From assembly GCA_047967505.1 (NCBI GenBank), contig CM106538.1: DNA of 64,000 nt, one strand, 5' to 3'. The notes beneath the pieces are model-generated. The model ran no database searches, was not told the DNA's origin, and saw only the letters and a program-made list of their open reading frames with translations. A program made the position numbers and the translations under genes. The DNA comes from Dipteris shenzhenensis (Eukaryota). Below are positions 38,191 to 64,000 of the stretch, piece by piece (position 1 is the stretch's first letter; every line of letters begins with the position of its first letter).

Positions 38191-38200
38191 TTTAAAAATC

Positions 38201-39944
38201 ATCTTTAGGAATGGCCACTAGTTGAGGTGGATTGCCCAACCAAAATAGGAAATGAAGATACAAGACATTTTGTATAAGACTCGCTCGACTTATCAAATTA
38301 ATACACAAACATAAACCTACTAGTCAACTATTGGAGTTGGACATTAAAGATTGACTAGTGACATGGTTGGTGACCAAAGCTTGAAGTTGACTAGACACTT
38401 TGGGACAAGCAAGTTCTTTAGAAGGAAACTAGGTTTAAGCTTGGGTAATCATCCCTAATATATTGGGAAATTACTAATGATAAATCATCCTTTAACTATT
38501 TGGCAATTAGTAAGGATCGATTCTACTAGGAAATATGTTGAAGGCATATGTCCCCTATTAGTCAATAGATTGATTAGACTAAGCATGCATGATAAGGCTA
38601 TAGCTTGGAAATGCCTAGATAGTGGCTTAGTCCAAATCTTCAATATCCCTTAAGAAGACATGAAATAGTGGCTTAGACCTTAAGAAGACATGGAATAGTT
38701 TGCAAATGTCTAATTCTTCTAAGTTATGCATAGACTCTAGCATAACTGAAAAAAGAATATTACAAGATTGAGAATATTTGGATGGGTCTTCAAGAACTCG
38801 AATATTACGGTCTGTGCCTATAAACTGTTTGAGATTCTTATGCTATCACTATGGCATGCTTTAGATCTAGCACTTTGATCATGTTTGTTGTCTAGTTCCA
38901 TAATTCATCTACTTCTCTTATATGTATAAGAAGAAAGAAATACACCATAGAGAAACTGAAAGTTTAACTAGAATACCTAACATTCATTGCACATGGGACT
39001 CTAGTGGATCTATATTCATTCCACATTCATGCTAATATATGCAAGTGTTTTGATCAACTATAGACCTAAGTTCAAATAGAGCCTGTTAATGACTGAATCT
39101 CTCCTAATCATCCCTTAATGATCATAGATAATAGTATGGGCCACTATAAGGATTGGTTAGGAGCTATTTTTGAAATGCCAAACTTTCAAATGAAGTCAAT
39201 ATTCATTGTGTTGAGGAAAATTTTGTCGGGTGGATCTAGTTGAAGAGAGAAATCCATGTTGCATAACATTTGTCTGAGTTGAGCAGCCTCAAATCGACTT
39301 AAGAGAGAGAGAACTCCATAACCTTCAAGAGTCGACATTTGAAGCATCCCATTCCATGTTGTTTGCTACATGGCAGCTCGCCATGTGGCACACATACATC
39401 CCTTTTTGCACTGTAGGGAAACCTATGACTAATGTTAACAACATTTATCTTGTCTTTTACAAATGACTAAGATGTTTTCCCAAAAAGACTTTGTAACAAT
39501 AATCACGTGAACCACCTCATAACCAAAATAGTATGGATGCTACATATCTCCTTTCCCTCGTTGAAACTATGTCACACATGGAATGTCAACCACATGCTCA
39601 AGGAATTATATGCTAGTTTCATTGTAAGCAAGGGTGGTCTCTTTCTTGCTAGTCCAACCATAGGCAACGGTGACGCTTATTACTTGAGCTCAACCAAAAT
39701 TAACATTAGTTATCATATGCAACCCTTCCCATTGCATAGGGACATCCAAGGATTTAATTTTCAAAGTTTTTGAATCCTCTTCTAGGGATCTTGTGCCCTT
39801 TGTTGTTGCTACGTATGTGGATGATCTCATTCCAAAACTATTTTTACAACTAGAAGTCAAGTGAGTCTTATACAAAATGTCTTGAACCAAGTGATGATCT
39901 ATAGGAATGGCCACTAGTTGAGGTGGATTGCCCAACCAAAATAG
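38201..39944. repeat. 1.7-kb segment bounded by 48-bp direct repeats; possible highly decayed Copia RT/RH fragment inside
   Basis: ATCT(T/A)TAGGAATGGCCACTAGTTGAGGTGGATTGCCCAACCAAAATAG at 38201-38248 and 39897-39944; weak - strand Copia-like traces (FGM..., EAAQLRQML). Confidence 0.55.
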
Positions 39945-42900
39945 ATAATATTGAAAAGGCTTAATTATTTTCTCAAAGTTCTCGCTTTAAAAGGTCTGTA
40001 GTGTGAACCCGCTCTCTTTTTTAATGTGTAGTCCGAGAAATACTAGATGCGCCTTGCTTGTGTATCGTTCAAAGTAATGTATTAGGTATCCTTCTATCTC
40101 CTCCATATCTATTGCAAACCCAAGGCAGTAAAGCATTCAAAGAAGGTCTTATTAACCAAACCTCTCCACTATCTGTCCTTAGTATAGGGGCCATTAGTGG
40201 ACAATGTGGTCCTTACACCACATGTGGAAAAGTTTCATATTGGATAAAAAGTGAAAAAAGGGAAACATATAAGGAAAAAATATTTGAGACATCTAAGTTT
40301 AAAAATGCAACAACTAGAGTGAAAAAATTCTAATCAAAATTAAGAATTATTAATAATATTGATTAATATTGAGCCACACATTTGGCCCATCTACCGGTAG
40401 GTGCATAGGATCTACCTCATCAAGGAGTACGTACAAATAGTTTTCATTACGTAAATAGATTATAAGTCATATTGAATAGAATATTATTTTCATTACCCAA
40501 ATAGAATATTAATTTCCATGTGTTTTTTTTGTGCATGCGCCAGCCAGCGCACAGGTTCTAGCACCACTATTCGTATGCAGATAGAGATGCTGAGAGCTGA
40601 GATGAGGGCACTGCAGGATGCTAGGGCACCCCCTCACTTGGTTGCGAGCCTGGATTCAGTTATTGAGGCTCTGAGTCGATTGGACACAGTTGAGGACGTT
40701 GTGGATAGCTTTCAGGCACAGGCGAGGCAGAGATCACTGGTGGTGGCTTGGATTGGAGAGCCATTCGACAGTTGTTTGAGCGGGAGTCACATCACAGGGA
40801 GGCCTTGGAGGACATGTTTTGGGATGGTCACACCGAGGCGATGCGACCACGATCAGGGCTCCCCTTGCATATTTTACAGTGTAGGCACCCCATCATAGCA
40901 GCACACATTTATCCGAGATATCTTGCTGCGAATGGTGGTCGATTGCCTCACAACCACCAGATAGCCAGGTCGTTTGCCATGCAGCTTTACGCTGAGTTTG
41001 TCCTTGGTCATCGGGTGGACTACCTCAGTACCCGTCCAGGATCAGGAGCGGGATGTGGTAGGATGGGGCGTCAGGAGAATCAGATTGTAGGTGTTCGCGG
41101 CGTCGACGCGAGGGACCAGAGTTGCACACCATCCCTGCACCGGCATTGCGAGCAGTGGGAGGACAGATTAGGGGGGATGTTCATTCAGTGGCATCATCCT
41201 TGCAGCACATGGTCTCTGCCCTATCGAGATCTATTGCGATTCCACCTCCCCCACCTCGATCATCGATGGAGCATCCCACATCTACACCACCTCCCACATC
41301 TACGGCGCCTCAGCACGAGTTGGAGGCTCGAGACAGATGGATTGCAGAGTTGGAGGCATTGTTGGCCGAGTCTAGGGACGAGGTTAGTTATTTTGATTAT
41401 GTTAGTTTATTTTTTTGTAGCGTGTTTTGAACTGAAGTTTTTTGGTTAATTCTCACCATGTACGCGACATGTTTGCATTGCAGGCACATCTATTGCGTCA
41501 GGAGATGGAGTCTCGCGTACGACTGTTGCAGACAGATTTGGAGGAGCAGAGGATTCGGACACGCATAGCATACCATCGCGCAGAGCACTATATTTTGCAG
41601 TTGAGGCATATTAGTCGTGATCCGTCGCGCCATAGGATCGACCCCAGTGTGGCCCTATACCCTGCTCCTCCTGTAGATGTGCTGACTAGGACACCCATAG
41701 ACGCAGCAGTCGTAGCGAGGCTTCCTACTGCCACTTGTGTCCTCTGCCACGAGGACTTTGACACCGTAGGGTGGTTTGGGGACTAGGGTGCGGCCACATT
41801 GCACATCTCCATTGCATGACCCGCCACATGGTGGCACGTTCAGTGTGCCCTGTATGCTTTGCTGACATTGATGTGGCGACATACAGAGGACTGGGCATGG
41901 ATGATCTATATCCTGGTCATCGTCAAGCTGTTGATCCATTCGCCCGTGTAGTCTTGACAGAGCACTACAGGGAGGAGCACAGAGAGCATTGCTGATGCAG
42001 GAGGGTGCGGATACATCGGTGGTTGCATCATGCGTTCCACGACGCTTTTCGTATGGTGATTTCATGCCAGGTGACGAGGCACGAGCGGAGGAGGCACGTC
42101 GGATTGAGCGAGAGGCAGAGCTGCAGACATCATTGCAGCAGTGGGTGGAGCAGCAGCTAGGGCGGGGCCGAGACCAGCGTCTTTCACATGTAGAGACGAT
42201 TACTCGCACTGGATTTGAGGCACGAGTATTCGCAGATGCACGGCTATGGGAGCTCAGATGTGCGTACATAGAGGAGGCAAGGGAGGCAGAGATGGCAGCA
42301 GTGGCGCGTGCAGCATGCCCTCCTCTTCATCAGGATGAGGCTGGCCCATCTCATGCAGCTGATGAGGCTGGCCCATCTGAGCCGGCTTTGCCTGAGGGCA
42401 CACAGCGGACGGTTGGGCAGCGGGTCATACAGGAGCCACGTCAGCGTTCCACTAGAGGATCATATGTAGAGTTATCAGATTCGGATTCAGATTGATTGTT
42501 TAGGCTTCACACGTTTCTTGTATAGGGATGCACTTTTGCAGCATGATGATGATGATGTACAGATTCATTTTGGTACTTTCATGATATTGTTCCCACTTTT
42601 ATGATGTATGAGCATTTTCGTACTTTCATGATGTTCTTCACACTTTGTTTATCTCAATTTATCTCAGTTTATAGTTTGTTTAATACATAAGGTATTTAAA
42701 AAAGAATGCCATGTGAAGTAATTGTAAACATTAAACATTAATTGTAAACATTAAACATTAAACATATCAAAATTCATCTTTTTTTGGATGAAAATTTTAT
42801 TTTGCTGATAAAAGTTTTTCATTTTTTAAACAAAAATTTTATTCTATTCATGTTTGTCAATAAAGTGTGTTTCAAAATCCAAATTTTCATCAATTTTTCA

Positions 42901-44272
42901 AAAAGACAACTATTGTCATATTCATGCTTCCAAATCTAGCCTTCCGATCTTAATATCAAAATATGTTGAAATTCAACCATTTGATAAACTAATTTGTATA
43001 AAAAGAAAATTAATTTTTTTAGACAATGCCATAACCCAATGTAAAATTGTTTCATCAAAATTCAAATGAAATTAGATATTAAAGTAACATCAAATTTACC
43101 AACTTTCAATTTATGCTATTTACAAAAAGTATTCTAGAAATGTATATTGGTACAAAACTTATCCATGACTCCGAGGGCAATGTTGTTACCTATGTGTAAA
43201 TCAATTGATAAAAAATTCTTTCAACACCAATGAACTTGAGGGAATGTGTGATCTGGAGATACTTAAACAACATGACAAAAGGAAAAAAATCGAGAAATCA
43301 CCAATGTGTGGACATGCTTAGTTTGTAGGGTGTAGAAATTCTTGTATATGGATTTGATATGGACACTTGCATAGAAAACAATTGGTATTTCAAAGAAAAA
43401 GCTCTAGCAACTCTCTTAGTTGAATGAAGCAGTTTCTTCTCCTTTGCAATTTGTCATGTTTTTTAAATTAAAGGAGAGAATACTTTTTGCAAATGATAAT
43501 ACTAGACATTTTTAGGTTTTGCAATAAAATATAAGTAATATTTTATGCATTCTTTTTTCACAATTCTAGTTTTTTAATATTATTGACATGAAGCATATAT
43601 TTTGTCCCTACAATTTTTAAAAAATATAAATTTTTTGGGGATTTTTTTCAAAAATGGAGTTAGACTTGTCCTTTGCATGATTTTGCTGTTATTTATTATG
43701 ACTCAGTGTTTAATTTGTCTCTTATTGTTAACAATACTTGTGCTAATTGGTGATCAAAGAAAACAAGACCTAATTATTTGTCATATTCGAACCACAATCA
43801 CATGTGCCTTCCAAATCACAATCGCATATGCCTTCCAAGTTTCTAAGGACTATTTCAATTTCCTTAATATGACATTTGCCAATGCACCAATCTAATTATT
43901 ATGCATGTATAAAAGATAATGAACATAAAGAAGAGAAATCAACACAATTGACAATTAATGCATGTATATGGGAATACAAGGAAGGTGTGGCATGCTAGCC
44001 CACCATTTTATTTCACTATTTTCTTTTGCATTTAGTGGTTTATGTACAAGAGAAAGGATTGGCGGTTGGTATAAGGAAAAGTGTTGGTATTTGGTTTATG
44101 TAAAAAGAAAGGGTTGTTGTGGCTATGCACCAAAAAAATATACACATATTAACAATCCCACTTCTCCCTCTTAAACTCTACTCATGTATGGGAGTACAAG
44201 GAAGGTGTGACATGTTAGGCCACAATTTAATTTTACTATTTTCTTTTGACTTTGGTTGTACGCTAACGTGTA

Positions 44273-45420
44273 GTCGTGCTAGTAGGGATTGCTTCTACGT
44301 GGCGCAAACCAAATCAGTTGGAGACCAAATCTTGCATGGATGTACGTCTAGGGTAGCCTAAGAGGCGTGTGAAGTTTCGTCCCCAACAGGGTTTAGGATT
44401 TAGGGTCCAGGGTTTAGGGTTTAGGGTTTAGGGTTTAGTCGCGCTAGTAGGGATTGCTTCTACGTGGCGCAAACCAAATCAGTTGGAGACCAAATCTTGC
44501 GTGGATGTACATCTAGGGTAGCCTAAGAGGCGTGTGAAGTTTCGTCCCCAACAGGGTTTAGGATTTAGGGTCCAGGGTTTAGGGTTTAGGGTTTAGGGTT
44601 TAGTCGTGCTAGTAGGGATTGCTTCTACGTGGCGCAAACCAAATCAGTTGGAGACCAAATCTTGCGTTGATGTATGTCTAGGGTAGCCTAAGAGGCGTGT
44701 GAAGTTTCGTCCCCAATAGGGTTTAGGATTTAGGGTCCAGGGTTTAGGGTTTAGGGTTTAGGGTTTAGTCGTGCTAGTAGGGATTGCTTCTACATGGCGC
44801 AAACCAAATCAGTTGGAGACCAAATCTTGCGTGGATGTACATCTAGGGTAGCCTAAGAGGCATGTAAAGTTTCGTCCCCAACAGGGTTTAGGATTTAGGG
44901 TCCAGGGTTTAGGGTTTAGGGTTTAGTCGTGCTAGTAGGGATTGCTTCTACGTGGCGCAAACCAAATCAGTTGGAGACCAAATCTTGCATTGATATACGT
45001 CTAGGGTAGCCTAAGAGGCGTGTGAAGTTTCGTCCCCAACAGGGTTTAGGATTTAGGGTCCAGGGTTTAGGGTTTAGGGTTTAGGGTTAAGTCGTGCTAG
45101 TAGGGATTGCTTCTACGTGGCACAAACCAAATCAGTTGGAGACCAAATCTTGCGTTAATGTACGTCTAGGGTAGCCTAAGAGGCGTGTGAAGTTTCATTC
45201 CCAACAGGGTTTACGATTTAGGGTCCAGGGTTTAGGGTTTAGGGTTTAGGGTTTAGCCGTGCTAGTAGGGATTGCTTCTACGTGGCGCAAACAAAATCAG
45301 TTGGAGATCAAATCTTGCGTGGATGTACGTCTAGGGTAGCCTAAGAGGCATGTGAAGTTTCGTGCCCAACAGGGTTAAGGATTTAGGGTCTAGGGTTTAG
45401 GGTTTAGGGTTTAGGGTTTA
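44273..45420 (+). repeat. 165-bp tandem repeat (7 units, one of 158 bp), each ending in TTTAGGG telomeric repeats
   Basis: Unit starts at 44273, 44438, 44603, 44768, 44926, 45091, 45256. Confidence 0.95.
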
Positions 45421-46720
45421 GTCGTGCTAGTAGAAATTGTAAAAATGTATGCATTTGTCCTTCCACGTGGCGCATACCAAATCAGTTGGAGACCAAATCT
45501 TGCGTGGATGTACGTCTAGGGTAGCCTAAGAGGCGTGTGAAGTTTCGTCCCCAACAGATAAGTCCACGTGCGTATTTCATTAGTACGTGCACCATTTTTC
45601 ATACGTAGTCACGAGTGCTAGTAGGGATTGTAAAAATGTACGCAACTATCCTTCCATGTGGCGCATACCAAATCAGTTGGGCACCAAATCTTGCGTGGAT
45701 GTACGTCTACGGTAGCCTAAGAGTCGTGCGAAGTTTCATTCCCAACAGATAAGTCCACACGCGTATTTCGTTAATACATGCGCCATAGCTCATACGTAGT
45801 CGTGCTAGTAGGGATTGTAAAAATGTACGCATTGTACCTTCCATGTGGCGCATACCAAATCAATTCAGACCAAATCTTGCGTAGATGTACGTCTACGGTA
45901 GCCTAAGAGCCGTGCAAAGTTTAATCTCCAACAGATAAGTCCACATGCATATTTGGTTAGTACGTGCGCCATTTCTCACACGTAGTCGTGCTAGTAGGGA
46001 TTGTAAAAATGTACGCATTATACCTTCCACGTGGCGCATACCAAATAAGTTGGAGACCAAATCTTGCGTGGATGTATGTCTAGGGTGGCCTAAGAGTCGT
46101 GCGAAGTTTCATTCCCAACAGATAAATCCACATGCGTATTTCGTTAGTACATGCGCCATAGCTCATACGTAGTCGTGCTAGTAGGGATTGTAAAAATGTA
46201 CACAGCTGTCCTTCCATGTGGCACATACCAAATCAGTTGGGCACCAAATCTTGCGTGGATGTACGTCTATGGTAGCCTAAGAGCCGTGCAAAGTTTAATC
46301 TCCAACAGATAAGTCCACATGCATATTTGGTTAGTACATGCGCCATTTCTGACACGTAGTCGTGCTAGTAGGGATTGTAAAAATGTACGCATTATACCTT
46401 CCACGTGGTGCATACCAAATAAGTTGGAGACCAAATCTTGCGTGGATGTATGTCTAGGGTGGCCTAAGAGTCGTGCAAAGTTTCATTCCCAACAGATAAG
46501 TCCACACGCGCATTTTGTTAGTACATGCACCATAGCTCATACGTAGTCACGAGTGCTAGTAGGGATTGTAAAAATGTACGCATTGTACCTTCCACGTGGC
46601 GCACACCAAATCAATTCAGACCAAATCTCGCGTGGATGTATGTCTAGGGTGGCCTAAGAGTCGTGCGAAGTTTCATCCCCAACAAGCAAGTCCACACGCG
46701 TATTTCGTTAGTACGTGCGC
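45421..46720 (+). repeat. ~187-bp tandem repeat (~7 units, 374-bp higher order) sharing the 165-bp core but without telomeric repeats
   Basis: Same core GTCGTGCTAGTAGGGATTG..ACCAAATC..GCCTAAGAG..CCCAACAG; ORFs 45945 and 46319 are 374 bp apart. Confidence 0.9.
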
Positions 46721-47054
46721 GAATTTTCTTAGTCACGTTTTTAAAATGTCCTAATGCACAAAACAAATTACAACATTACTACTAATAAACAATTTTTTGT
46801 ATTACAAACACAACAAATCCCATTGAGAAGACATCGGACATCATGTTAAAAATAGAATCTAATACAATGATGTGTATGAACGTGTATACAGCCATCATAG
46901 TGAAATACAAAATATGAGTCCATGAAAATTACAATGGTACGGTCACACAGTGAGCCTATACATATCGAATACAAAAAAGTGTAATCAACTAGTGATACCC
47001 AATAAAAATCAATCTGATCAACTGATGATCCCAAAAAATATGATATGTAATGTG

Positions 47055-49994
47055 CTACTCCTCAGGATCAGCTCTCATGCCAATAGTTGCAAGTATGCTC
47101 TCGTGATCCGCCACTGCAAGGCGCCATCGTGGAGTGGACGTCGCCTTGCGAGTGCGAACACGACTCAAAGTAATCTTGATCCCAACAACAAGATGAGAAT
47201 ACATGTATGCCTCCTGATCCGCCATGTACTCCTGGAACTCAATATAGCGACCACGCCTCTGTATCTGCTGAAAATAGTGGCCACCTACGATCATGCTATG
47301 AGCATTGAAGTGCATCCCATGCCCATCCACTGTATCCTCATTCAGCACACTCTTTAGCATAGAGCATCGCAACAAGTAATAGTCCACACCCTCCTCATTG
47401 CCCTCCGAAGCAATAACCGCGAAGATATCACCAATACGCAAAATATCTGTAAGCTGGTCATAATCTCTAGAGGAACTGAATCCCGCATCCTGATCATCAT
47501 GTATCTCCTCCCAAGGCTGGAAGGGAGAAAGCACTCGCCGTACCCATGGATCGGCCCATGGTATCATGGAGCACCCTCCCCAATCATCATCAATGCATGC
47601 AGAGCAAAAACATGCAAACCGTCGAGAAAAGATCGCGGGGTGAGACTCACCTACGCTCCTGATGGAATGGAAATCAAGAGTGCCAGGCAGAGAACGACAA
47701 TCAAAAGGCCTCGACCGATCAAGACTCCCAATGTCCACGCACCAAAAATACTGGCTCACCACCCTATCGTCACGCGACTGAAACGAGGACGTAGCACTAG
47801 TGGATAAGTGCTGGCTGCACCACCGCACCACATCATGTGCGTCCTTGAAGCGATCGGCACGGTGACGCAACTGGTATCGATGCAAAGCACGCTTCACACA
47901 AGAACCTACACCATCGTGCTCTCCCTTACCGTGCCCTGTCTCGAAGTAGCTCCATGTGATCGGAATGCCTGTCTCACGGTGCCATCTGCAGAACCAATAA
48001 AACTGTCTAGCGGATTTGAACTGACCACCGCAACCATCTGACCAGATCCAGCGCCGCTGCCATGTGACACCATGATCCCTCAAGAAACTATCATGCAAAG
48101 TGAAGCAATGCTGCACAAAATGGGCATCATGCGATCGATCATCACTAATGTAGAAGTGATACTCTCGCACAATGATGCGTGAGTCCATGGTGCTATCAAT
48201 GCCATCCACATGAGCTTGTGCATGACGATAGCTAATGTGCACAAATATAGCAACCTGCAATATGGCATTGAAAAAAAAATATGACTATTGAGATAATTCA
48301 ATATAATGAGGTGGGGAAAAAATCAATACTCAATCACACGTCACCTGTTCCGAGAAATAATACTCCGATTGGATCTCATGCTGTGGTGCAAAGGTGTAAT
48401 TCTCCGCAAAGTCCACCACTGAGACAACCACCCCTATAGGAAATGTCCTCAAACATGCACGGAACTGACGATCCTCCCATTTCGCAGTGTGCGAGTGGCG
48501 TATGTAGCGGTACAGCTTCCCTCGAAAACAGTCAATGAATACAACACGTGGTGTCTCCTTCCCCACAAGCTGCAACCTCCTCGACTGTGCACCACCATCT
48601 AATGTCAAGGTACAGTACTCATACTGCTGCCAACGAACCATCTGCACATCACAAGTATCTAGTGCAACTCGTGGCACTCTAGCAAAGTCACCACATAAAG
48701 TACACGTGCCTTCCACACAATCAAGGGAGTGGAATAAAGCATCACCATCTCGTGTACACAATATGGAATGAATGAAGTCGCGAGGGCTAGTAGGAACCAC
48801 TCCCCTATGACCATCAAGGGAACGGAATACGTCATACATCAATCCAAAATCCACATGGTAGCGACAACAGCATGTGTCACGCTCCTGAGAGCATCACACA
48901 AACCATGGCCTGCATCGCTCAAATGACCTCTGCCCAATCTTGAACTCCGGGTGCGCCTCTACAAACTGAGTGTATAACTCAGTCTGGGTACACTCCAAAA
49001 AACATGCACCATGCTCAATGTACACACCGCGTGACACCCTCTTCCGCAATGCCTTCTTGAACACCGGGGATGCTCTGCAATGCTCCTCCCAAAATTGTTG
49101 TATGAAGGACCTAGTGGAATCATCCAACAATCGATCGCTGCGAGGTGCATGACCACCACTCGAAGCCCAAAGAGCATCAGTCTCACTATCCTCTAGACTC
49201 TGCCTCCTAATGATGCCTGCTCGCAATGTGTGCGGTGCAATCTGAAGAAGACGTGAAGCGGTATGCACATGGCCTATCATATGAGGTCTACTAATGGCAG
49301 CCACAATAGCACGATGTGCTGCCAAGGCATCACTGGAGTTCCTATGCTTAATAGAAGCATAGGAACGTCGAACACTGCTAAGGACCTCGCTAGATACAAC
49401 CCTATCTCTACGTGCACCAAGACCAGCAAGCCTCCTACACTCTACCAAGTCAGGGTGATCAATCAGGGACGTAAGAAGAGAAGACTGCGAAGCTGGCGTG
49501 AGGTCACAAAAAAAAGACTGCACAATCTTGCTAGTACGACGACGGATAGTGGACTTCGGCAAGTCACGTCGTGAAGCAACACTGCTGCTGCAAGGTGGGG
49601 CAAGGGGATCAATGGGAGATGGTAGGGTGGACGGGGGAAGGGAGGCACCAAGCGGAGCGGGGGGAGGGGGAGGGGGAGGGGGAGGGGGAGGGGGAGGGGG
49701 GAGGGTGGAGGGGGAAGAGGTAGAGGTGGAGGCCAAAATGTAGGTGGCTAGGGGAAGGGCGGAGGCTAGAGGTAGGGGAGCGGATGAGCATGGGGGGACA
49801 ATGGAGGTGGGGGTGGGGGTGGAGGTGGGATGTAGAGGTAGAGCTAGAGGTGGATCAGTGGTGGCAGTGCGAGCTCGAGCTCTAGAGGCTCTCTTGTGCT
49901 CACGAGCCTTCCGCTTGCGCTCCTCGTCAATGAGATTTGGGGGGGGGTTCCTACATCTTTCACGTCTACTAGCTCTACGGCTTTGAGAACCCAT
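47055..49994 (-). pseudogene. Sola2-type DDD transposase, one intron (48255-48344), one premature stop (48894)
   Basis: PWFV*CSQERDTCCCRYH, CVEGTCTLC, VVDFAENY..EIQS, ISDDRSHD, WSDGCGGQFK, FETGHGKGEHDGVGSCVKR, FACFCSAC; Pro-rich N-terminus from ATG 49994. Confidence 0.9.
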
Positions 49995-50223
49995 TCTCAA
50001 TGAAAGTAGGATGGAAGGTGTGACAAAGTGATGAGGAGGCAAGAATGGCTAAGAATGGGTGAAATGAACCAAAACGTGGTGTCTTATAGAGAGCCTCAAC
50101 TCGTCCACTACATTGCTCTAAGATTGCTCTTCATTATTATTGGTGGAGAGGTGCTAAGATTGATACTAATTGGCTTAGTTTTGGTGGAGAGGTCTGCTAT
50201 GCCCAGAGCCCCGATCAGACCTT

Positions 50224-50360
50224 ATACCTCGATCGAGGTATTTAGTGCATTGCGCATGTATGTATGAACCTCGATCGAGGTATCTCTAGGTGTCCTCGGT
50301 CACATACCTCGAACGAGGTATTGTATGCCTCACCCAGGTTATATACCTCGATCGAGGTAT
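50224..50360. repeat. ATACCTCGATCGAGGTAT palindromes upstream of the Sola2 transposase
   Basis: Four copies or variants. Confidence 0.85.
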
Positions 50361-51661
50361 TGTATGCATCGCACATCGTCATGTGTATACATCTGGCTGA
50401 TGTGGCACCATGCATGGTCATGATGTGGTAATATAGTCTCTTCCTGCATGGTCATGATGTGGTACTGGGCCTCTTCGATGACATTGAAAGGTGATGTGGC
50501 ATGATGAGTTGGCATTCATGAGGTGGTAGATTGACATGGCAAATTGAGGTGGAGGGATTGGTGACGTGGCAAGGTTGAGGAGGTATGCCAAGGTGGCATT
50601 GTGTGATCACATGGCTGATGATGTGGAATGATGAGGTGGCACATGTGCCAGCACGTGTGGCAATGTAAGGTGACATGGCAAGGAGTGATGTCACATCTGC
50701 TTGATGAGATGGCACCACGTGGTCTAACAACATGGCATGGTTTTGATGACTCACCCTTCCACATGGGCAGCATACAGACTCCAAAGGCTTGCCACTAGGA
50801 TCGGTGATGCTCCTAGCCTACCTCACCAAGCCTAATACCAAGCCTACCTTGTCTTGGTATTAGGCTTGGGTGGCCCTTTTTCCCCCACAAAAGGGAGATT
50901 TAATTGTTGGAGGCCATATCGTATGTTTCCCTTACTCAAATTTAACCAAAATTTTTTCCTCTTATTCATCATGCAGAGGACTAAAAATATTGACATTTTT
51001 GAAATGTTTGGTTACGTTTGAGAATTACTAGATTTATTTTTAATATTCTTTGTTGATCCTCTAAGGAGTAAAAGTAAAAATTAAACTTCAATCTTCCTAA
51101 ATCTAACCGTTGGATTTGGGATTTGATGATTCAACCACACACCCTTATGTGCTTACTAACCTTCCACCAAATTGGATTTGCTTAATTATTCAAAATACTA
51201 AAAAAATGTGGTGTGCTACTAAAATGCATGTATTTTATGACTTTATTTATTATAAATAATTATTTATAATTAGATAAATCATTCAAAAAATTACCAATAA
51301 ATCAAGTTAAGCTCTACATAATGCAAAGAGACCACTTACAAAGTTTCAATAACATTTAATTTAAAATGAGTGAGAAATTTAGAATTTAATATGACACTCT
51401 TTGTTCGTGACAAACGTGTGACCACCCTGGAACCATGCCGTGTGACACAAAGAAATTTTTTGTGTGTGCATCGAATTTTCGATCAGACTATACGATTGTG
51501 TGCACAATAGCAAGTGTGATGTTGTGTCAGAAGACTTCAAAGACTAGATCCATAGGGAAGTAGGTGAGATTTGCATTTTTGTGTGCTAAAAAGCTTGTTT
51601 TTCCACCTCCTTAGGATTGGGGAGTGAACAAAAAGTGGACACCCTTAGCTTGCTACCACCC

Positions 51662-52110
51662 ACTACAAGGTAGCCCAACACATGCTGAGTCATTCTGGCT
51701 CGAAATTCGGCATTGTCCTCCTGCATTAAACGGTCTAGGAGCACAGCCGCTCGATCCACATATCGACGCGCCGTCTCACCTTCTGATTGCTTCAAGTTTG
51801 TCACATATAGGTACACATTCTCCGACTCTTCTTTGCTGAAATACTCAATCATCACTGCTGTTAACCTTGGCCAACTTTGGCAAACATCATTGGCCTACTT
51901 CTCATACCACACTTGAGCCAAACCCTCTAGAAATCTGGGAAGAACCAACAGCCATCTGTCTTCAGTAAGAAGCTGAGAGAAACACAACGGCACTTGAAGG
52001 CCACAAGATACTCATTTGGATTTTCTTCAACCCATCCACAAAACACAAGAATGTCAACCATGCTTGGAAAATGGAAACGAGAGACGAAATGAGGCTTATC
52101 TATGGGCAAA
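51662..52110 (-). pseudogene. Gypsy gag capsid region
   Basis: FCGWVEENPNEYLVAF, LPRFLEGLAQVWY, LKQSEGETARRYVDR match the plant retrotransposon gag pattern. Confidence 0.85.
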
Positions 52111-52639
52111 CAATGGAAAGAGGTAGCTTGAACTGAAAATCAGGTGAAGATACATCCACAAAGCACACATACGCAGGGTAGGGTGTCACTGGTGTATTGT
52201 GAAATACTACCCGGAAAGAAGTTTCAGCATAGAATAGCTCATAGACAATCTTAAAAGGACCAACCCTCATGATATCATAGGCATCTTTACAAGTGAGGGT
52301 TCGAGACGTGGCGCTGCATGAGGTTGTTCATCAAGGCAAACAAGAATGCCATGACAAATGTCAACAGTTGGAGAGCTTGCACATCACCTTCAACTTCTTC
52401 CAGTTCTTGTAGTCGCCATGCTATTTCTTCAAGGGGTGTGCGATGTGGCACATTTCTTTTGAGCAATGTCCTTGAGGACCTTTCTGATGATCTTCCAAAG
52501 TCGGTAATGTCGCATCAAATATGCCCAACACTTAGTTTCATGATGACCACAACCTTTGCATTCCTTACAAATGATCACCCTCCTTCGTGGCTTGCAGCTT
52601 TGTTGGGGTGGTGCTTCCACTCGCGTCATACGTGATTGA

Positions 52640-53045
52640 AGTACAAGCTTCACGTGCCAAGAAATCAGCAACTGTATTTTGAGGTCGAGGGATATTCTAA
52701 ATTTTTACCTCTTCAAATTGTTGGCACAGTTCCAATGCTTATTGATGTCATGGAACCAAGCCTTTGCTCCGCACCTTCCACCTTCCACTAACTTGTTCAC
52801 ACACTAGTTGAGAATCTCCTTGCATCTCAAGTTGCTTGACATGATGTTCTTGTGCCTTTTGTAGCCCAAAAATGAGTGCCGAGTACTCAGCTTGGTTGCA
52901 AGTACTTGCAGGTGCAAACTGGCTATAACAATACTCCTCACCACCCGATGAAGTGAGCTTCACACCCACACCAGCAGCCTTGGTTGAAGGTTTGTAAGCT
53001 CCATCAAATTGAAGGATCCAAGATGTCATCACACCAAGACTAAGA
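52640..53045 (-). pseudogene. Archaeal-type RNase HI domain (aRH), followed by an extra CCHC knuckle at ~52525-52570
   Basis: WILQFDGA..AGVGV..TCNQAEYSALIFGL..GDSQLVCEQVSG.W..IPRPQNTVADFLAREA (D, E, D, D all present; 3 stops); CKECKGCGHHETKC downstream. Confidence 0.9.
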
Positions 53046-53051
53046 TTCGGA

Positions 53052-53297
53052 CTCGGGGGGGTCACTCATAATATGTAACCCTATCACGTGAGTTCAACAG
53101 AAGGATATTTTCTATTTCTAAAATTTACAAAAATAAATATACATAAGGGACTATTTAAAATAGTTTTGAAAAAAATTTACAGATTTGTATAGAAAAGGGG
53201 TACATTTTAGTAATGAAAAATTTACAGATAAGGGATTTTAGAAATAGGCCTTGAACGCACGTGATATAGAGGGTTTATACATAGTGACCCCCCTGAG
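53052..53297. mobile_element. MITE, 246 bp, same family as 11004-11250
   Basis: TIR CTCGGGGGGGTCACT / AGTGACCCCCCTGAG; 8-bp TSD GATTCGGA (53044-53051, 53298-53305). Confidence 0.92.
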
Positions 53298-54637
53298 GAT
53301 TCGGACATCCCAAGTTTCTCGATAGTCCAAGTTAGGTAGAAGGAGAGGGTGGGGAGAATTTAATACTTGAGCCAAATGTTCACCACCAAATAAACTTGCA
53401 ATCCTTTGTTGATAGTTTATCTTTAGACCAAAAATAATTACAACTTGAAGCTCGAAATGAGACACAAAAGGTTGATTAGGTACAAATGGATTCCTTGGTC
53501 GAAACATTACCAACCATAGCCGAGGCCTAGAAACCTTTGTAGTGAGATTGAGAATAAACCATTCAAGACGAGCTTATCCACAGGAATTAATAGGCAGATG
53601 TGCCAAATCTCCCCCCAAGCTTAGGGAGCATCCCACCCTTCAAAGAAGGACACCCTTTTAATTACCTCCGAAGCAGCAAGTAGCTCGATCACCGCACAAT
53701 GAGTAGAATTAAAATCAAAGTCTTCCCAGTGTATCACTAGTTCTTCACCTTGAATCATCCATGGTGTATCATCCCACCCATCGTCTCCTTAAACAATGCA
53801 TTGGACAATCAACCTTTGAAGGTCGACATGACGATCAAGCAAGAGATCTCGCCAATTGGTAGCCGTAATGAGTAGAGGACCAGGCACCAAATCCTTAAAC
53901 TCATCGAGAAGTGACATAAATATCCACCCTCCTTGCGTGGCATGCATCCGTGAAGTGAAGTTGAAAAAGTTTTGAATCGACGATCTAGTAGGAGATGTGA
54001 ATAGAGCACATGAAATGAAATACTTTTGCTTTTTACAACAAGAGTAAACTCCCCACGGTTAGAGAGTTACAGTTCCCGAGATTTCAATATATAAGCAAAA
54101 ATCATTACATTTTCATCACTTCCTACTTGTTGGCCCAATGATAAGTCTCCCTTTTGTGAAGGGGGAGGTCTTGGGTTTAAATCCCACTCTTTAATAAAAA
54201 GAGAGGAGAGGAGAGGAGAAGGAGAAGAGAAAGAGAAGAGAAGAGAGAGGGGAGGCGCGGGATCTGTTACAGTTTTGCAAAAACCCAGAAAAACTGTTCA
54301 CGACCAGAAGACACAGGAGCCTAGAAACCGTCGTGGTCTGTCCGTGATGCGCGCAGGTGTACACAGTGGACACGCGCAGGAGCTCAGAGAGAGCACATAT
54401 GTTGTAGTTCTACACATGCGACCGGTACGAGCAGAAGATTCACCAACCAAAATACACATAGGAACTGCAAGCAAAAAGCAGGCAGACTAAAAGTGCAGAA
54501 GTAAGGAGGTTTTGCAGCCGTAGAGACAAAAAAGGCACACAGTTTGGAGGTGCAAAAGTAGAGAACTGTGCACAGAAGAGGCCACAGAGCTGCACCCACC
54601 TAGGAGTAACAGATTTTACACCACTAGCCGTGGAGAT

Positions 54638-54659
54638 TTCGATCCCAGCAGCCATACCA
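54638..54659 (-). other. Primer-binding site complementary to the tRNA-His 3' end
   Basis: - strand TGGTATGGCTGCTGGGATCGAA, 4 nt from the LTR end; resembles the plant tRNA-His 3' end (...ATCCCAGCAGCCACACCA, recalled from memory). Confidence 0.75.
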
Positions 54660-54663
54660 TTTC

Positions 54664-54780
54664 TATTAGCCGGAAAAGAAATCAGGACAAGAGGCTAGAT
54701 ACTAAGCATGGCGACGCTCAAGGGCCATAGAGGAAAGGAGAACATGAGGGCAAAATGTTATCATGGGAGGGAAAATGGGA
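54664..54780 (-). repeat. Remnant (117 bp) of the 5' LTR
   Basis: Matches 31184-31300, then switches abruptly to CACTA sequence homologous to ~9789 of copy 1. Confidence 0.85.
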
Positions 54781-55485
54781 AGCAGCTTCTCAAAGAGATT
54801 GGATTGAGGACACAAGGAGAAAGAGAAGGAAGACGAATACAAAAAAGACTAGAAGAGAGGTGTCTTCTATCTTTTATAAAATCTCATTTTTTATCTTCAA
54901 TCCTTTGAAATCAAGCACAAAAACTAGCACATAGCCTTAGCAATACAAGGAGAAACATGCTTCAACACTCACAAAACGAAATCTCACAAAAAACGAACCT
55001 CCGTTGTTCAAAGAGACTCACCTTCTTGAAATACTTCTTTTCAAGAAAGCACAGAGGGAGAAGGTGGAGAGGGAGCACAAGTGTTAGAAGAGAGGTGAGT
55101 AGTGGTGAGGAGTGGAGAATAGAGTGGGAGGTCATCAGAAATAGGTGGGAGGAGAGATTATAGCTTACAATAGAGATTACTAAAGAAAGTGCCACACATC
55201 GCAAGGTTCGGGTTTTAACCCACAGCATTGCTATATAGCGACGCTGGTCAGTCGCTATATAGCGATGCTAGTCAGTCGCTATATAACGACGCTTATATTT
55301 AAAAGCATCACTATATAGCGACGGAATAGAGCAAATCGTCGCTATATAGCGACGGAACAGGTTAAAACGTTGCTATATAGCGATGCTTCAGGACACTTCA
55401 TGTTTGAAAGTTAAAAAAGAAGCTCATAGATACTATTTTATAACTATTAATATATTTCCTTGCAACTTATATTGTGATTTTATAA

Positions 55486-58232
55486 GTGCAGATAGAAGAG
55501 ACGAGTGGAAGGTCGTCCGATGATGCGCCAATGCCTGGGAGCACAAAGTGGCTTACGGAGAGGTTATATTGTCATTGCACTCATTGCAAGCGAGAAGTAC
55601 GACATCAATGTCGTATTATCATGCGCCACTTACAGATGTATGGGGAGGAGCCCGAACCAGTACCCACCGTTGGTGTTGCACGTGTTGATGGATTATCGGT
55701 AAGTCAAAGCTATTTAAGTTCACGGTTAATATTGGATACCATTATGGTACGAAACCTTGAGACAATATCTTATATTTACATGAAATCTTAAAACAGGATG
55801 AGGAGGCTGACGAGGGTATGCATATACCTTCACACTTTGAGCATCATATTTTCAAGCTTAGAGGGCGAATGGAGAGGAACGTCCTCCTGGTATGAAGAGG
55901 CTATTGATCGTTCACGAGCTTCCTTATTGGGTTCAGTTACAAATCAATCATCTCTTAGATCCCATTCATATCTTCAAGAATGTGGGGGCTACTATTTGGG
56001 CACACTTGGTTGGTTCCAAAGACTCGAGAGGAGTACGAGAAGACTTGCGTGCTATGAATAAGATGTCTCATTTGTGACCCCAAGTGCATGCTTCGGGAAA
56101 AGTTATCCTCCCGAAAGCAACGTGGATCCTCTCTATGAGGGAGGAGGCAGTGGTCAAGGCGGACATTGCCTCTTTTCAAACACCGACAGGGTACATGCGT
56201 TGCTTGAAAGGAGCATTTTCAAAGGACAATAAGCTTAGTGGGCTCAAGTCCCATGATTCGCACAAGGTCTTACAGGTATTCTATGCTGTAGAATTAGTGT
56301 ACCGATAATTGTGATGCGTTAGCATAATTATGATTATGTTATATTGGTGACATGACTTCTTTGTTGCTTTGATAGTTCATCCTCCCAATTACAATAAAAG
56401 GATGCTTACAAGAGATGTTAGAAATGCTATATTCAAGATCAGTGGTATTGTGAGGTATGCTTACTATCAAATTGCATTGATTGCATTTTCTTCAATTTAA
56501 GCTGATTAATCTGTAGACTAATTATGAAAATATCTTATGGACATGTGAAATAGGTGGATACCTCAAAAAGAGATCTCCATATCGAGCATCGAGAAGGCTA
56601 GGGTGGAATCCATCGAAGCCGTATGCTTGCTTGAGAAGCACTTTTCCTCGAGCATTATGACAACTCAAGTCCACTTGCTTGTACACATTGTTGATGAGGT
56701 GGCTATTGCAGGTACCGTTCATAGTCGATGGATGTTTTTTCTCGAGCAGTTTATGACAACTTTGAAGGGATTTGTAAGACAAAGAGCAAGACCAGAAGCA
56801 AGCATGGTAGAGGGATGGCTTGTGCAAGAGTCATTAGTATATATCACGGAGTTTCTTGTATCCACGGATCCTGATATGCTGCAAGCTTGTCAAAACAAGG
56901 ATGATGATCGCATCATTGGCGAGGCTCCCCAAGAAAAAGGGATTGAAAGAAATATAAGCGAAGAGCAAATGGAGAAATTCAATAAGTTTTGTATCCTCAA
57001 TAACCCTGAGATGCAGAAGTGGATTGACAGATATGAAGTGGCCAAAGCAGAAAGAATAAATGCAAGAATGAGATTCAGAGTAATGTACGGGCGATCACAA
57101 CCATATCCACGAGATCTGGCTCTTCTCCCCACTCACATGTCACTTGATTGGCTACAACTGGCTCTACGTAAAGCCGAACATGATGGAGAGACAATAAACG
57201 AGCGCGAGTGAGAGTTATCATCTGGATGTATGATGCATGTAAGTTTCTTACCTCTTGATATAATTAAGTAATTATTTGTGGCAATATATGCTATAAAATA
57301 GATGCATCTTCATTGTTTTAATGATGCTCTTTTACAGTACAAAAAGTACAGTGCATTATGGTCATATGGACGACATTTGCACGTGCAACGCGTCGATTCA
57401 AAGAGAGTCACGTATGATTATGGAGTCATGGCTAACTTCACATAAGATAGCTGAGCAAGTGCTTTGGATACCAATCTTCTCTCCTCATAGTTGGATTATT
57501 GTGAAACCATACGCGAAATATATGAAGCTGATTTCAGACGATTTAGTATTTTCATTCTTAATGTAAAATGGTTTAGAACTATTTACAACGGTCCCCATGC
57601 GATAGTGAGAAAAGATAGTAGCAGATTCTTTGCAATAAACTCCACCAAACATTGGACCAATGAAAGTAATACTTTTGTTCTTCCCGAGCACTGTGAGTAG
57701 GTGCATACTAATGATTTAATTAATTGAAGCTTTTGTTTTTAAAGATCCATTAATACATGTACTTAGGCATAATTTCATATATATAATTGATGACATCTGG
57801 CACCCATCTTCAATATAGGTGGTTTTTCATCCGAATCGTTCTGATCCAAGATGGTGTTATGTGATCCAAGTTGCACCATGAAGTAAGCAAATTTTTGAAG
57901 ATAAAGATGTGGATATGGAGATGCCACTACCAATGCCGGATCCAATTGATCCCGATGAATCTAACGAAGAAGATGAAGATCATAATATGAGCCAAGAGAA
58001 AGATGCGCATAATGACATCACACGGGAGGAAGATGGAGATCACGATATTGAGGAAGAATACAACGATCATCAAGAATCACCACACTTTATTGAAGAAGAT
58101 GATCAAGTACTTTTAGGTGAACATACGATGCTAGAGTACGATGATGATCATATAGGAGATCAACTCGATATAGAGTTAGAGATAGACTTGTTTGGCGCAT
58201 TAGACTTGGCTCAAGATGAAACAGTTGATTAA
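55486..58232 (+). pseudogene. CACTA transposase copy 2, internally deleted
   Basis: Peptides match copy 1; the region equivalent to ~6460-8775 is missing (junction ~55840); start ATG mutated to ATA; several stops. Confidence 0.92.
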
Positions 58233-58417
58233 ATGCTCTTCATTGATTTTTTTCATCTCAAACTTGGACATGAATATATGAGCTTCAAAGGCTTGATGTA
58301 CATGCTCTCATACTTTTATTCTCTCAAAAGGTCAAACATGTATGAAAATTTAAAAAAATTTGTCCTTGGAAAAAACTAACTTTCAAGGCCTATATGAGTA
58401 AAAAAGCTCTCTGGAAA

Positions 58418-58550
58418 ATGTCGCTATAAAATAGTATCTCAGTGTCGCTATATAGCGACACTTAGATTTCTGACAAACATCGCTATATAGCGACTTTAGA
58501 AATCGTCGCTATATAGCGACATTTGCTTAATGTCGCTATATAGCGACGCT
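58418..58550. repeat. CACTA subterminal palindromic repeats, copy 2
   Basis: GTCGCTATATAGCGAC, 4-5 copies. Confidence 0.85.
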
Positions 58551-59372
58551 TTACGGGATGCGCTTCCCATATCGATGATTAGCACCCTGCACGCGCTAAA
58601 CGTCGGAACTTAAACGTCGCAATAGGATCCGTGTGTAGTAGTGTGACATCTTCCTTGGGCTATAGTAGCATGCTGGAAGTTTGTCAAACCATGCAGGTCA
58701 AAAGGATATAAGGGAAGTTGAAAATATGTCGCCTTCTTGTCAAGGAGAGCAGGAAAAGCCAAGAGATCAGAAAGGTTCTAGTCAAAAGAGACATGAGGAA
58801 CCACGACACCCCAGGTTTATTCACACTTGATTTGGACGTCACATCGGGGTCATATCCAAATGCTTCAAAGAAGCTATTATACTTGAGTGCAACAGAATGA
58901 AGGACATTTGGGGGCTCGGGAGGGAGAGGAGAGGATGTCTTGTGAATCGTCCTCATCCCATCGCCGAATGATTAGAGATTTGTGAAGCCAACCTTACCCA
59001 TACAACCTTCCTCTATTTTTGCCATTCACCCTCTCCTCCTTCCTCCTGCCCATCCCTACTACTCCCATTTTGCTTATCATCCCTACTCATGTGTGTGTGC
59101 ATGCTTGAGGGCTAGCAAGGCTAGGTTTAGGTTTAGGTTTACGTTCCGTTAAGTATATAGTTAAGATTAGCATTAGCTTATGTCTTTATGGGTGACGTAT
59201 GGGGTACATGGGTGTAAATGTTAGGGGATTTTTTGGTCAAACTATGCCTAGGGTTATGGAGTGTATTGTGGGTGATGTGTAAGTTTGTATCTATGGCATT
59301 TTTTTGTAAATTATGATTTGGCATTATGTAGCCTTAGCTACTAAAAAAGTAGACCCATTACGTGCTTGTATG

Positions 59373-61187: not shown

Positions 61188-62491
61188 TTATCTTGTGCCA
61201 ATCACAGAAAGCGCCCTAGTCATTGCCATCAAGGTGATACAATCAAGGTGTTCGTCGTTGCCATGAAGTTGATACAATGCTAGAGGCAATTCCGCACCAG
61301 CGCCATCGAGACAAACCATGAGGAACGCCAGGGCAACATGATAGATTATTATGCACCTTTGATCTAGAAGAAACGATTCTCTCAAGGACGGATATTTCAA
61401 GAAACTCTAAGGTTAACTTCTCCAAACGTATGATAGTATGCAGAAAGAGCCTTCCGAACCCTTGCAGCCCGATAGAATGGCATTGTGATGCTCTACGTTT
61501 GTTCAAACAATGTGTATAGTACTGCGTATTTGATTGGTTTCTACAACAAACAGGGGCTACTGAAAAAGAGAAGTTGCCCAAGAAGAAAACCAAAGAATTG
61601 TATGTTTTGAATTTATCAAAATTACGGCTTTTCTATAAGAATGGATTCTTTAATTCTAGAATTCGTGGAATTGAACTATAGATTCTAAGTAATAGCAGTC
61701 ATAGCTTTTTTCAATCGTTTATAAGATGAAAATGATTTGAATATGTACCTATGAAGAACAAAACAAATTATACATGTTGAACTTAAAATTTTGTGCTTAT
61801 ATGGAACAAGTGTTTGAAAGTGTGACTCCCTATCATGTTTGAGTGAATAAAACATTAACTTTTTGAATTTCCTAAATTATTTATTCCATTCACAAAGCAC
61901 AAGGTACAAAAATATTGAAACTAGATGCCTTAATAAAAAAGGGAGGCCCTCTTTGAAAAAAATGGTATTAGCGAGTGGAAGAGGGGGGAAGGGGGGGAGG
62001 GGGATGGATTAAGGAGCAAGGGTAAGATGCCACGTGCCCTACTCAATGCATTCTTAAGGTTTTTCCAAATGTTTCCAGCTCCCTGCTCATTGCATATAAA
62101 GATGTGATCTTTCCAAATCATGCTGCCTCCTTCTCGCATATTGTTGATCTGCTACAATGCCTTCCATCCACTCGCTTTCTTCCTATCTTCCCTTGTGATC
62201 CGCCACACCGATTTGCTTGTGTACATTTCCCTCGCTGCGAAGTGAATGCACTCTGTCGTGAAATATAGCAATAGATGTGTCGTTTTAATTACGAGGACAT
62301 GCCTCACTGCTAATGGATTTTGGTAGGGGGTCAGCATGGAATGGACAATGTTACATGCTACATATCTGGATTGATTGCTTTGCTCCTTCTAGTGAAAAAA
62401 ACATTTTCGTGACTGCTCTTATTCCAGGTCACGATCCTCAGGGCGCCGCTCTTCCTCCGCCATACCCACAAACTCCTCTTCTAGGATCGAG

Positions 62492-64000
62492 AGGTATGAG
62501 GGAGTGGAAAGAATAAGTTGGTGCCCCTCATTTCTCATTCCAGGATCATGAGAGGATGGTGGCCTTTGAGGGTGGCTGGGTGGAGGAGGTGGCAAGCAAG
62601 GGGGAGGGGCAGGGTTGAGGTCGACGAGGTGATCGCAGCAGTGAGGCAGAGGGGAGGGAGTGAGAGGGTGATCACAACGAGGCTAAGGGGAGGGGCAAAG
62701 GAACGTTAAAGGTTAATTAGATTAGCTTAATTGACATTAGGGGGTTTAGCATAGGTTAATGTTTTAATTAAATTGCCAACTGATTTTTTCAATGAATCAT
62801 GAAAATTTTGTAACTTTTTTTAATCCAATCCAAATTCCTAATGCCAAGACAATTGAAATAGAAAATTACAAACCTAATGCAAAAATTTTGATGCAAATTC
62901 AATGCTCGAGCACAAAGTTAGAGAAATTTTAGAATTAGTAGAGCCATTAGTATTATCTATTTCAATGAGAGAAGGTCAAACATTAAAATACAAAATAAGT
63001 TTTAAGGTAAAGAGGAATATAGATTTCAATTGCTAAATTTATTAAAAATTTTCTCATCATATCTTCTAACATTAAAATAAAGAAAAATTAATTTGGTGAT
63101 GACATGTGGCAAGAAAAAAATTTCTACAAGCAAAGTTTTACAAACCAAGCTTACAAAAAAACATGCGTAGTCCATAATAATGGGGGTAACATTAAAATTC
63201 CATGTTAATTACAGGTTCTGTTTGTGTGTGTATGTGTGCATGAGTGCATGTTTGCACATGCATGCGTACGAGATGCCTACATCGATGTGTATGTGCATGC
63301 ACATTCCGTGTGCATGTGCGAATGCATGCACACATTTGTGCATGTATGCATGCGTAGATGCATCTGTGTGTGTGTGCGCGGGTATGCACGTGGGAGAGAG
63401 ACACTCATGTATGACCAACTTCCATTTTCATCTAAATACCCTTACACATTTTCCACAATCCTCATCACATATTCAACTATTTGCTGAATAAAACACATGA
63501 CACTTTACTATGGGTTATCTCTATAGAAGTCAATTGATCTCTCCAAGTCTATGACAAATCATTAAAGGACATGATGATAATTCCATCAAATGGGATTATT
63601 GTATGCATATATATGTATGTGTAGAGAATCACAAAGTAGTATTTTACACAACCCACTAGTTGTGCAATCTATAATGCTCTTGTCTCAAGGATAGAGTTTC
63701 AACATGGAAAAAGGTTCTTCCTCCTTTTTCCCTAATTATTGGTCATTTGTAAAGTGGAACATGCACATTTTGGCATTTTCAAACATGCAAAAGTGTGTAT
63801 TACTTATCTGTATGTGTTTGATGGTTAAGGCACTTTGAACAAACCTTTGAATAAGTATTTTCCATAAACTTGTATTTTTCCCTAAGATTTTTATGAAATT
63901 GGAGATTGCACAGCCAAAATTAATGAAATCTATGTAGTCATTTGTGTGGTGCACCTTGCACATTTTCTCTATGTTCTTCTTTTACTTTTTCTCAAGTTTG
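62492..64000 (+). repeat. Segmental duplication, copy B (matches 1336-2844; runs off the window)
   Basis: Near-identical to copy A. Confidence 0.95.

Follow-up and report, generated by a model that had tools for sequence, protein, structure and literature searches.

Elements of the Tat lineage of Ty3/gypsy long terminal repeat (LTR) retrotransposons can carry an archaeal-type RNase H (aRH), whose position is the chief structural marker for subdividing them and for comparing them with the dual RNase H of retroviruses. The part of Neumann 2019 (PMC6317226) on which we draw gives three such positions, all in pol: between protease (PROT) and reverse transcriptase (RT), between the native RNase H (RH) and integrase (INT), or after INT. 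It adds that extra open reading frames (ORFs) are frequent in the 5' or 3' part of Tat elements and that elements with unexpected domain order were set aside in the survey. Biryukov and Ustyantsev 2023 (PMC10508981) surveyed 92 green plants and distinguished five Tat structures, among them structure #4, with the aRH upstream of gag, comprising Tat B in four mosses and Tat C in Selaginella tamariscina; ferns (Tat D) had structure #1 only. A 2026 paper (PMC13468544, cited throughout from a portion of its text) names the former arrangement 'pre-capsid' and has mosses, clubmoss lines and ferns adjacent on its RT tree; in the trees of both papers, as far as that portion goes, the structure #4 clusters Tat B and C lie beside the fern cluster Tat D. 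Here we analyzed a stretch of 64,000 nucleotides from contig CM106538.1 (GenBank assembly GCA_047967505.1), hereafter the window, and found an element that is probably an old degenerate copy of a Tat-lineage Ty3/gypsy family in which the aRH lies between the primer-binding site (PBS) and gag, and not in pol.

Among the published variants, the one with an aRH before gag is the rarest; how such an enzyme could work from outside pol is a question that PMC10508981 itself poses. Section 2.4 of PMC13468544 once gives mosses as 'post-integrase', an apparent slip, considering that its own definitions and PMC10508981 say pre-capsid.

The domain order on the minus strand of the window is X-aRH-CCHC-GAG-(CCHC remnant)-PR-RT-RH-INT, where X is the N-terminal remnant of an ORF upstream of gag, CCHC a zinc knuckle and PR the protease. 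A sequence-only reading of the same DNA had proposed these parts, each of which was found at, or a few bases from, the place it gave, all on the minus strand; its order X-aRH-CCHC-GAG-CCHC-PR-RT-RH-INT was borne out, the second CCHC as a remnant only. Its summary of REXdb, with aRH positions all within pol, agrees with the part of PMC6317226 cited above. It had also stated that no described lineage has an aRH N-terminal to Gag, which structure #4 of PMC10508981 refutes, and had itself named prior cataloguing as what would remove the novelty; the architecture is indeed catalogued in PMC10508981 and bears the 'pre-capsid' name in the cited portion of PMC13468544. The layout corresponds to this published arrangement, and no claim to a new architecture stands. 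All the structure #4 features open to testing are present in the window element, namely the PBS-aRH-gag order, a pol without aRH in this copy and, as read from a chain of short pieces, the sharing of the layout by other family members.

The locus is one more, degenerate, family with a known rare layout, and it is minor as a discovery because the architecture is already published and the copy is dead. The copy in the window cannot move: the aRH frame has three stops, X and gag are frameshifted, a miniature inverted-repeat transposable element (MITE) interrupts the upstream ORF and a 15.7-kb element interrupts gag, the integrase has lost its N-terminal part to a deletion and the 5' LTR is shortened.

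An aRH between the primer-binding site and gag

The element was read on the minus strand from 54800 downward, with stops read as the letter X in the translations used for domain searches. What is left of the 5' LTR is its 3'-terminal 118 bp (54663-54780, minus strand); the rest is lost, and a CACTA-like element adjoins at 54802. This piece pairs with the 3' end of the 3' LTR (31183-31300, minus strand) at 91.5% identity over 118 bp on the same strand, and only this much of the LTR is paired, the 5' copy being truncated. A purine run, a candidate polypurine tract, lies near 32150. Both LTR copies finish in the same eight bases (...GCTAATAG), and a contig from a public run (X2, see below) diverges into unrelated letters past 54666, as expected for the LTR terminus of another copy. 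Three bases past the end of the 5' LTR copy stands a PBS-like site (54638-54659, minus strand), read directly from the sequence as TGGTATGGCTGCTGGGATCGAA (54659-54638), that is, TGG plus 19 nt with a T-arm-like GGGATCGAA; the PBS that had been proposed at 54638-54659 matches it exactly. ARAGORN found no transfer RNA (tRNA) genes in the window. A tRNA-like stretch at about 54100-54190 was considered and dropped, as ARAGORN gave no genes and Rfam no matches at E up to 1.

The upstream ORF begins with X (53307-53788, minus strand), which is spread over two frames (open at 53788-53510 and 53573-53241) and resembles no known family. Pfam returned nothing meaningful at E up to 10 for the pieces of X, for the segment with the knuckle or for the one after it, and a likeness of X to DUF4283 (plant L1 ORF1) was abandoned, Pfam giving no support. 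The ORF remnant perceived in the letters is real, as P0062, a protein from another copy, runs through X into the aRH in one frame. The aRH itself (Pfam RVT_3; 52646-53008, minus strand) was detected with an E of 3.2e-24 in a scan of the three minus-strand frames of 51400-55200, where just two Pfam families appeared, RVT_3 and RNase_H, the latter under the cut-off. On 53065-52568 alone, RVT_3 reached an E of 7.4e-26 and 90.9 bits (cut-off 21.6), and RNase_H 30.1 bits. The motifs FDGA, AEY, GDS and ADFLA align with the four catalytic acidic positions (DEDD) of the relatives, confirming the four acidic residues recognized earlier; the frame carries three stops, making the domain of the window copy a pseudo-domain.

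A zinc knuckle, CKECKGCGHHETKC, follows the aRH at 52569-52528 (52528-52569, minus strand), in a frame that differs from the aRH's in the window copy. It is an exact CX2CX4HX4C and the single occurrence of this pattern in the six frames of the window (mean of thirty shuffles, 0.1), in line with the CCHC knuckle already suspected after the aRH. The aRH frame meets a stop at 52567-52565 and the knuckle frame one at 52431-52429, with an ATG ten bases further on, at 52419, an arrangement that fits a separate upstream ORF ending just ahead of gag. Between knuckle and capsid lies a 75-codon open frame (52290-52514, minus strand; the ATG at 52419 is in another frame), which is possibly the N-terminus of gag. 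A blastx search of the knuckle and gag N-terminal regions against 270 fetched proteins gave no match at E 0.01.

The gag capsid is cut by a nested insertion into a first part (51662-52070) and a second part (35829-35948), both on the minus strand. Pfam gave nothing significant on the gag region, the best hit being PNMA with an E of 0.1. Using hhalign, 52011-51664 matched columns 41-119 of a gag alignment of ten relatives (Retrotrans_gag in P0154) with a probability of 66.7% and an E of 5e-5; the piece resuming at 35948, whose translation was placed in the same way, matched columns 144-166 weakly (E 0.13) and in the expected order. Further on, a nucleocapsid knuckle remnant (35421-35462, minus strand), CYECHQKVIIAWNV, has kept its CX2C and lost the H and the last C.

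A pol with degenerate native RNase H and without aRH

Using tblastn with relatives together with Pfam, the PR-RT-RH-INT block was located at 35263-32208 (minus strand). The protease region (34745-35263, minus strand) was found with residues 378-551 of P0180 and contains a DRGAA motif. RT and native RH (33127-34478, minus strand) are covered by Pfam RVT_1, RT_RNaseH_2 and RT_RNaseH within 34205-33168 and by residues 666-1120 of P0154, which map to 34478-33127. Residues 1469-1713 of the same protein map to 32969-32223, within the segment holding the pre-integrase motif and the C-terminal two thirds of the integrase (32208-33072, minus strand); the integrase lacks its H2C2 finger and the beginning of its core.

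The pre-integrase motif, ..DPxY..FP.E....R+K, trails the aRH in relatives and is found here at 33084-32956, about 25 codons past the end of the native RH. Because the RH end is directly followed by this motif, there is no room for an aRH in the pol of the window copy, and a search of 27000-36200 at E up to 0.01 returned no RVT_3. The aRH is absent from pol in this copy. On the contrary, in 6 of the 6 relatives scanned, RVT_3 lies between RT_RNaseH and Integrase_H2C2, with the order gag-PR-RT-RH-aRH-INT or the part of it that the protein contains.

The native RH is degenerate, INPGFG replacing TDAS and LTSTG replacing TDH, with loss of the first and third catalytic aspartates. These replacements match those of aRH-bearing relatives (NPSVG/LSVG; TVEE/TSMS), whereas DAS and TDH are retained in relatives in which no aRH was observed (P0187, P0193, P0172, P0260, P0251 and P0235; P0220 aligned at the first site only). 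The change is tether-like, as is typical of aRH-bearing Tat elements, although in a single decayed copy part of it may be decay. According to PMC10508981, the native RH is degraded in all aRH-bearing Tat structures, irrespective of the position of the aRH.

The upstream block in other copies

We asked whether the upstream aRH was private to the window copy. An HMMER search with the aRH over 1.84 billion representatives matched 12,857 proteins at E up to 0.001; among the best 150 of these, two only exceeded 46% identity to the window aRH. P0002 (96 aa) shares 80% identity and shows an open frame at a position occupied by a stop in the window. P0062 (145 aa), encoded on a 630-bp ENA contig, passes from X into the aRH without the MITE, at 69.6% identity over 69 aa. 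Each is a singleton, on an ENA contig of about 600 bp. A word-based search for longer proteins holding the aRH or P0062 found none at E 1e-5, which is weak evidence. A metagenome locus (L001) retrieved in a scan with the open 105-aa aRH frame was set aside as unrelated, being 43% identical over the aRH only, with no RT, gag or INT similarity and a GC content of 53%.

No public run shared more than 18% of the words of the stretch; four runs were then compared with the window at 80% likeness, and their contigs (named by run, as in X2) were traced across the boundaries between parts. Contig 10 of X2 (1027 bp) spans 52143-53044 and 53299-53423 gap-free with 58 mismatches, contig 25 of X5 (1188 bp) spans 52096-53040 in three pieces, and contig 2 of X1 spans 52018-52171. 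Contig 21 of X3 spans 53961-54189 and 54373-54750, that is, the leader, the PBS and the LTR end. Contig depth, including the thin cover at 54312-54599, was not taken as evidence, and two joints, 51660 to 53071 and 52055 to 53298 (one X3 contig each, sides of 29 and 34), were taken as repeat artefacts, as they end in the terminal inverted repeat (TIR) element or the MITE.

Results showed that X-aRH-knuckle-gag N-terminus on one side, and LTR end-PBS-leader on the other, are each contiguous in copies from other samples; therefore, the layout belongs to the repeat family and is not private to the window copy. Family members lacking the upstream aRH had been named as the outcome that would speak against it; P0062 and the contigs of X2 and X5 (10 and 25, respectively) carry parts of the upstream block, and contig 21 of X3 carries the LTR end, the PBS and the leader.

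Placement among Tat elements

The RT-RH stretch matched 974 proteins at E up to 1e-10; among the named ones, those of the fern Adiantum nelumboides ranked first, followed by liverwort, Chara and angiosperm proteins. In a quick RT tree of 93 rows, the window was sister to a clade of 38 rows (Adiantum and unnamed sequences), 29 of which carry an aRH, and the joint clade had an SH-like approximate likelihood ratio (SH-aLRT) of 99; the Tat identity of these relatives is read from their aRH and not from curated references. An ESM Atlas search with the open 198-aa RT frame returned generic RVT_1 clusters only. The RT grouping, an aRH with DEDD and a degraded native RH all argue that the element belongs to the Tat lineage. 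Relative to the fern sequences, the window RT sits where the published trees put the moss and clubmoss clusters beside fern Tat D.

Like the structure #4, or pre-capsid, elements Tat B and C, the window element is a Ty3/gypsy Tat with the aRH outside pol and upstream of gag, a degraded native RH and an RT next to the fern cluster. It differs from them in that their upstream ORF is given, in the texts compared here, as aRH only, with no N-terminal extension or CCHC knuckle, and in being decayed, all its upstream frames being broken. The fern Tat D elements of structure #1 (Adiantum nelumboides; P0154, P0169, P0180) have the nearest RTs (44-56% identity, sister position), a tether-like native RH and the same gag-PR-RT-RH-INT backbone; however, theirs is an aRH between RH and INT (6 of 6), while the window has its aRH before gag and none in pol, and their predicted proteins show no upstream ORF, gag beginning about 40 residues ahead of the capsid domain. 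Ogre, Retand and TatI-III (REXdb) are likewise Tat elements with an aRH and frequent extra 5' or 3' ORFs, but in all five subclades, as described in the cited part of PMC6317226, the aRH is inside the polyprotein, whereas in the window copy it lies outside.

Origin of the upstream aRH

The window aRH is about equally near to cellular RVT_3 proteins (40-45% identity) and to Tat aRH (31-41%). Among its 100 best matches, 26 carry SAP, 9 an RNase H1 N-terminal domain and a few an integrase or a gypsy RH. In a quick tree of 122 rows, the window and P0002 fell on the LTR-retrotransposon side against the cellular rows (SH-aLRT 86), and in a careful tree of 62 rows they grouped with 20 LTR-retrotransposon rows against 40 cellular rows (ultrafast bootstrap, UFboot, 59 and SH-aLRT 89). 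Moreover, the window aRH starts with FDGAYK like the fern Tat aRH and lacks the GNPG motif of cellular forms. Together these observations hint that the aRH derives from a Tat aRH rather than from a fresh host capture. PMC10508981 reports an aRH phylogeny that did not resolve and judges repeated captures unparsimonious. The sequence-only reading had offered an independent capture or a relocation; the capture half is disfavored, if weakly, by the LTR-retrotransposon side of the tree, and relocation by recombination between elements, as PMC10508981 proposes, fits better.

How the aRH came to precede gag can be explained in other ways. One would have the family descend from a fern-type 'retroviral' Tat (aRH between RH and INT), with the aRH block moved or copied upstream of gag in one ancestor through recombination between elements, independently of the moss and clubmoss structure #4 lineages. 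The nearest RT relatives do carry their aRH in pol (6 of 6), the window RT is sister to that aRH-in-pol clade, the FDGAYK start without GNPG is common to the window and fern Tat aRH, and in PMC10508981 recombination is taken to have generated the other structures out of structure #1. We nevertheless consider such a family-specific rearrangement improbable, since identity between the upstream aRH and the aRH in pol of the closest relatives by RT is only 31-34%, as against 44-47% for the RTs, since the upstream aRH is not nested inside that clade in the aRH trees, since X and the knuckle have no counterpart in the polyproteins of those relatives, and since the published trees already set structure #4 clusters beside the fern cluster.

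It is more doubtful still that a host RNase H gene fragment was freshly captured into the leader, an explanation that we hold to be extremely improbable. The top BLAST identities beyond the two near-copies are indeed with cellular RVT_3 proteins (40-45%), one of which, P0004 with two RVT_3 domains, has a nearly identical GDSQLVC.QV.G.WKVRSK stretch, and the SAP (26 of 100) and RNase H1 N-terminal domains (9 of 100) of the best matches point the same way; the position in both trees, with its weak support, the missing GNPG and the parsimony argument of the PMC10508981 authors stand against it.

A further possibility is that the aRH is a functionless passenger, a fragment of a plant L1 long interspersed nuclear element (LINE) or of another Tat left in the leader of an ancestor. 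Plant L1 elements share the archaeal-type RNase H fold family with the window element and are known carriers, Smyshlyaev having reportedly described in 2013 plant L1 LINEs with an aRH at the C-terminal end of ORF2; the leader of the window copy took other insertions (the MITE at 53053-53297), and all frames of the upstream block are broken there. On the other hand, no LINE-type domain stands beside the window aRH, be it LINE RT, endonuclease or zf-RVT, nor is there a poly(A) tail; RVT_1, zf-RVT, Exo_endo_phos and DUF4283 occur in 0 of the 100 best aRH matches, and the sequence after the aRH shows neither a poly(A) run nor a flanking duplication. P0002 is open where the window has a stop, and the native RH is catalytically degenerate, so a working aRH would be needed somewhere. 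A passenger origin thus appears very improbable.

Returning to the reading that we favor, a Tat family of the structure #4 type, several points weigh against it. The comparison with the published Tat B and C is one of descriptions, and gag is identified by a profile match of moderate strength. The knuckle shares its frame with the aRH neither in the window nor in the gap-free X2 contig, and the support of the aRH tree is weak (UFboot 59 and SH-aLRT 89). The family layout is pieced together from a chain of short overlapping contigs, no one contig or record spanning LTR-PBS-X-aRH-gag capsid-pol; the listed pieces leave 53640-53938 unbridged, and the other copies are those of relatives, considering that the runs share at most 18% of the words of the stretch. 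Finally, the integrase deletion sits right beside the site that the aRH occupies in relatives, and an aRH in pol, judged here from one copy, may have been lost through that deletion.

Possible role of the upstream protein

Because the native RH has lost catalytic aspartates, RNA removal during reverse transcription would depend on the upstream aRH. Translation of the full-length genomic RNA would yield the aRH either as a protein of its own, encoded upstream of gag, or fused to the N-terminal end of Gag. Entry of the aRH into the particle would have to occur in trans, and the zinc knuckle beside it could serve as an RNA-binding handle for that entry. We propose an aRH-knuckle fusion in the upstream ORF as a working hypothesis. 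Its full version, a three-part protein in which a nucleocapsid-type CCHC knuckle, preceded by an N-terminal domain and the aRH, binds the genomic RNA and carries a stand-alone RNase H into the particle, is in our opinion unlikely, yet it deserves mention.

If true, such a protein would answer the question raised in PMC10508981 of how an aRH outside pol works. If, in addition, the host is a fern, the pre-capsid structure would be extended to a group for which only the retroviral structure has been reported. The knuckle beside the aRH is, in any case, a feature to look for in the published moss and clubmoss elements.

Nested insertions and neighboring repeats

The two intervals that the sequence-only reading had suggested excising (35951-51665 and 53052-53305) are real insertions, and the limits proposed for them are off by no more than the target duplications. 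The smaller is a MITE of 245 bp between X and the aRH (53053-53297), flanked by a 9-bp target duplication, GATTCGGAC (53044-53052 and 53298-53306). A second copy, 94.4% identical, is found at 11002-11253. The empty site is seen in one contig each of X1, X2 and X3, which join 53044 to 53299 and skip 254 bp. The MITE termini are G/C-run terminal inverted repeats, and very many contigs of X3 and X5 match the MITE with diverse flanks.

The larger insertion is a nested 15.7-kb TIR element (35951-51661) with 29-bp terminal inverted repeats and ACTA at both flanks. Two X1 contigs support its empty site, going on past 51663 for 15 letters that agree with window 35935-35949 at 13 positions. The TIR element holds tandem arrays of 165-bp units (44268-45550) and of about 187-bp units (45305-46728), together with three minus-strand open frames of 409, 187 and 384 codons (47055-50048) without Pfam match.

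Two inverted copies of a CACTA-type transposon lie at 4314-9743 and 54802-58643, the latter adjoining the truncated 5' LTR. Transposase_21 was found in the first (6572-7129) and DUF4218 in the second (56549-57208), and the copies are 91% identical over 2.1 kb. Elsewhere in the window, 10000-13600 contains interleaved tandem-repeat families (units of about 62-70, 90 and 156 bp) with strong negative GC and AT skew, and 23254-25372 contains direct repeats of 300 and 230 bp, 99% identical, at a spacing of 1059 bp. Lastly, a 1.5-kb direct repeat (1335-2844 and 62491-64000), 98% identical with copies 61 kb apart, reaches the end of the window; its two copies could be the LTRs of a very large element, or else a segmental duplication could enclose the whole region.

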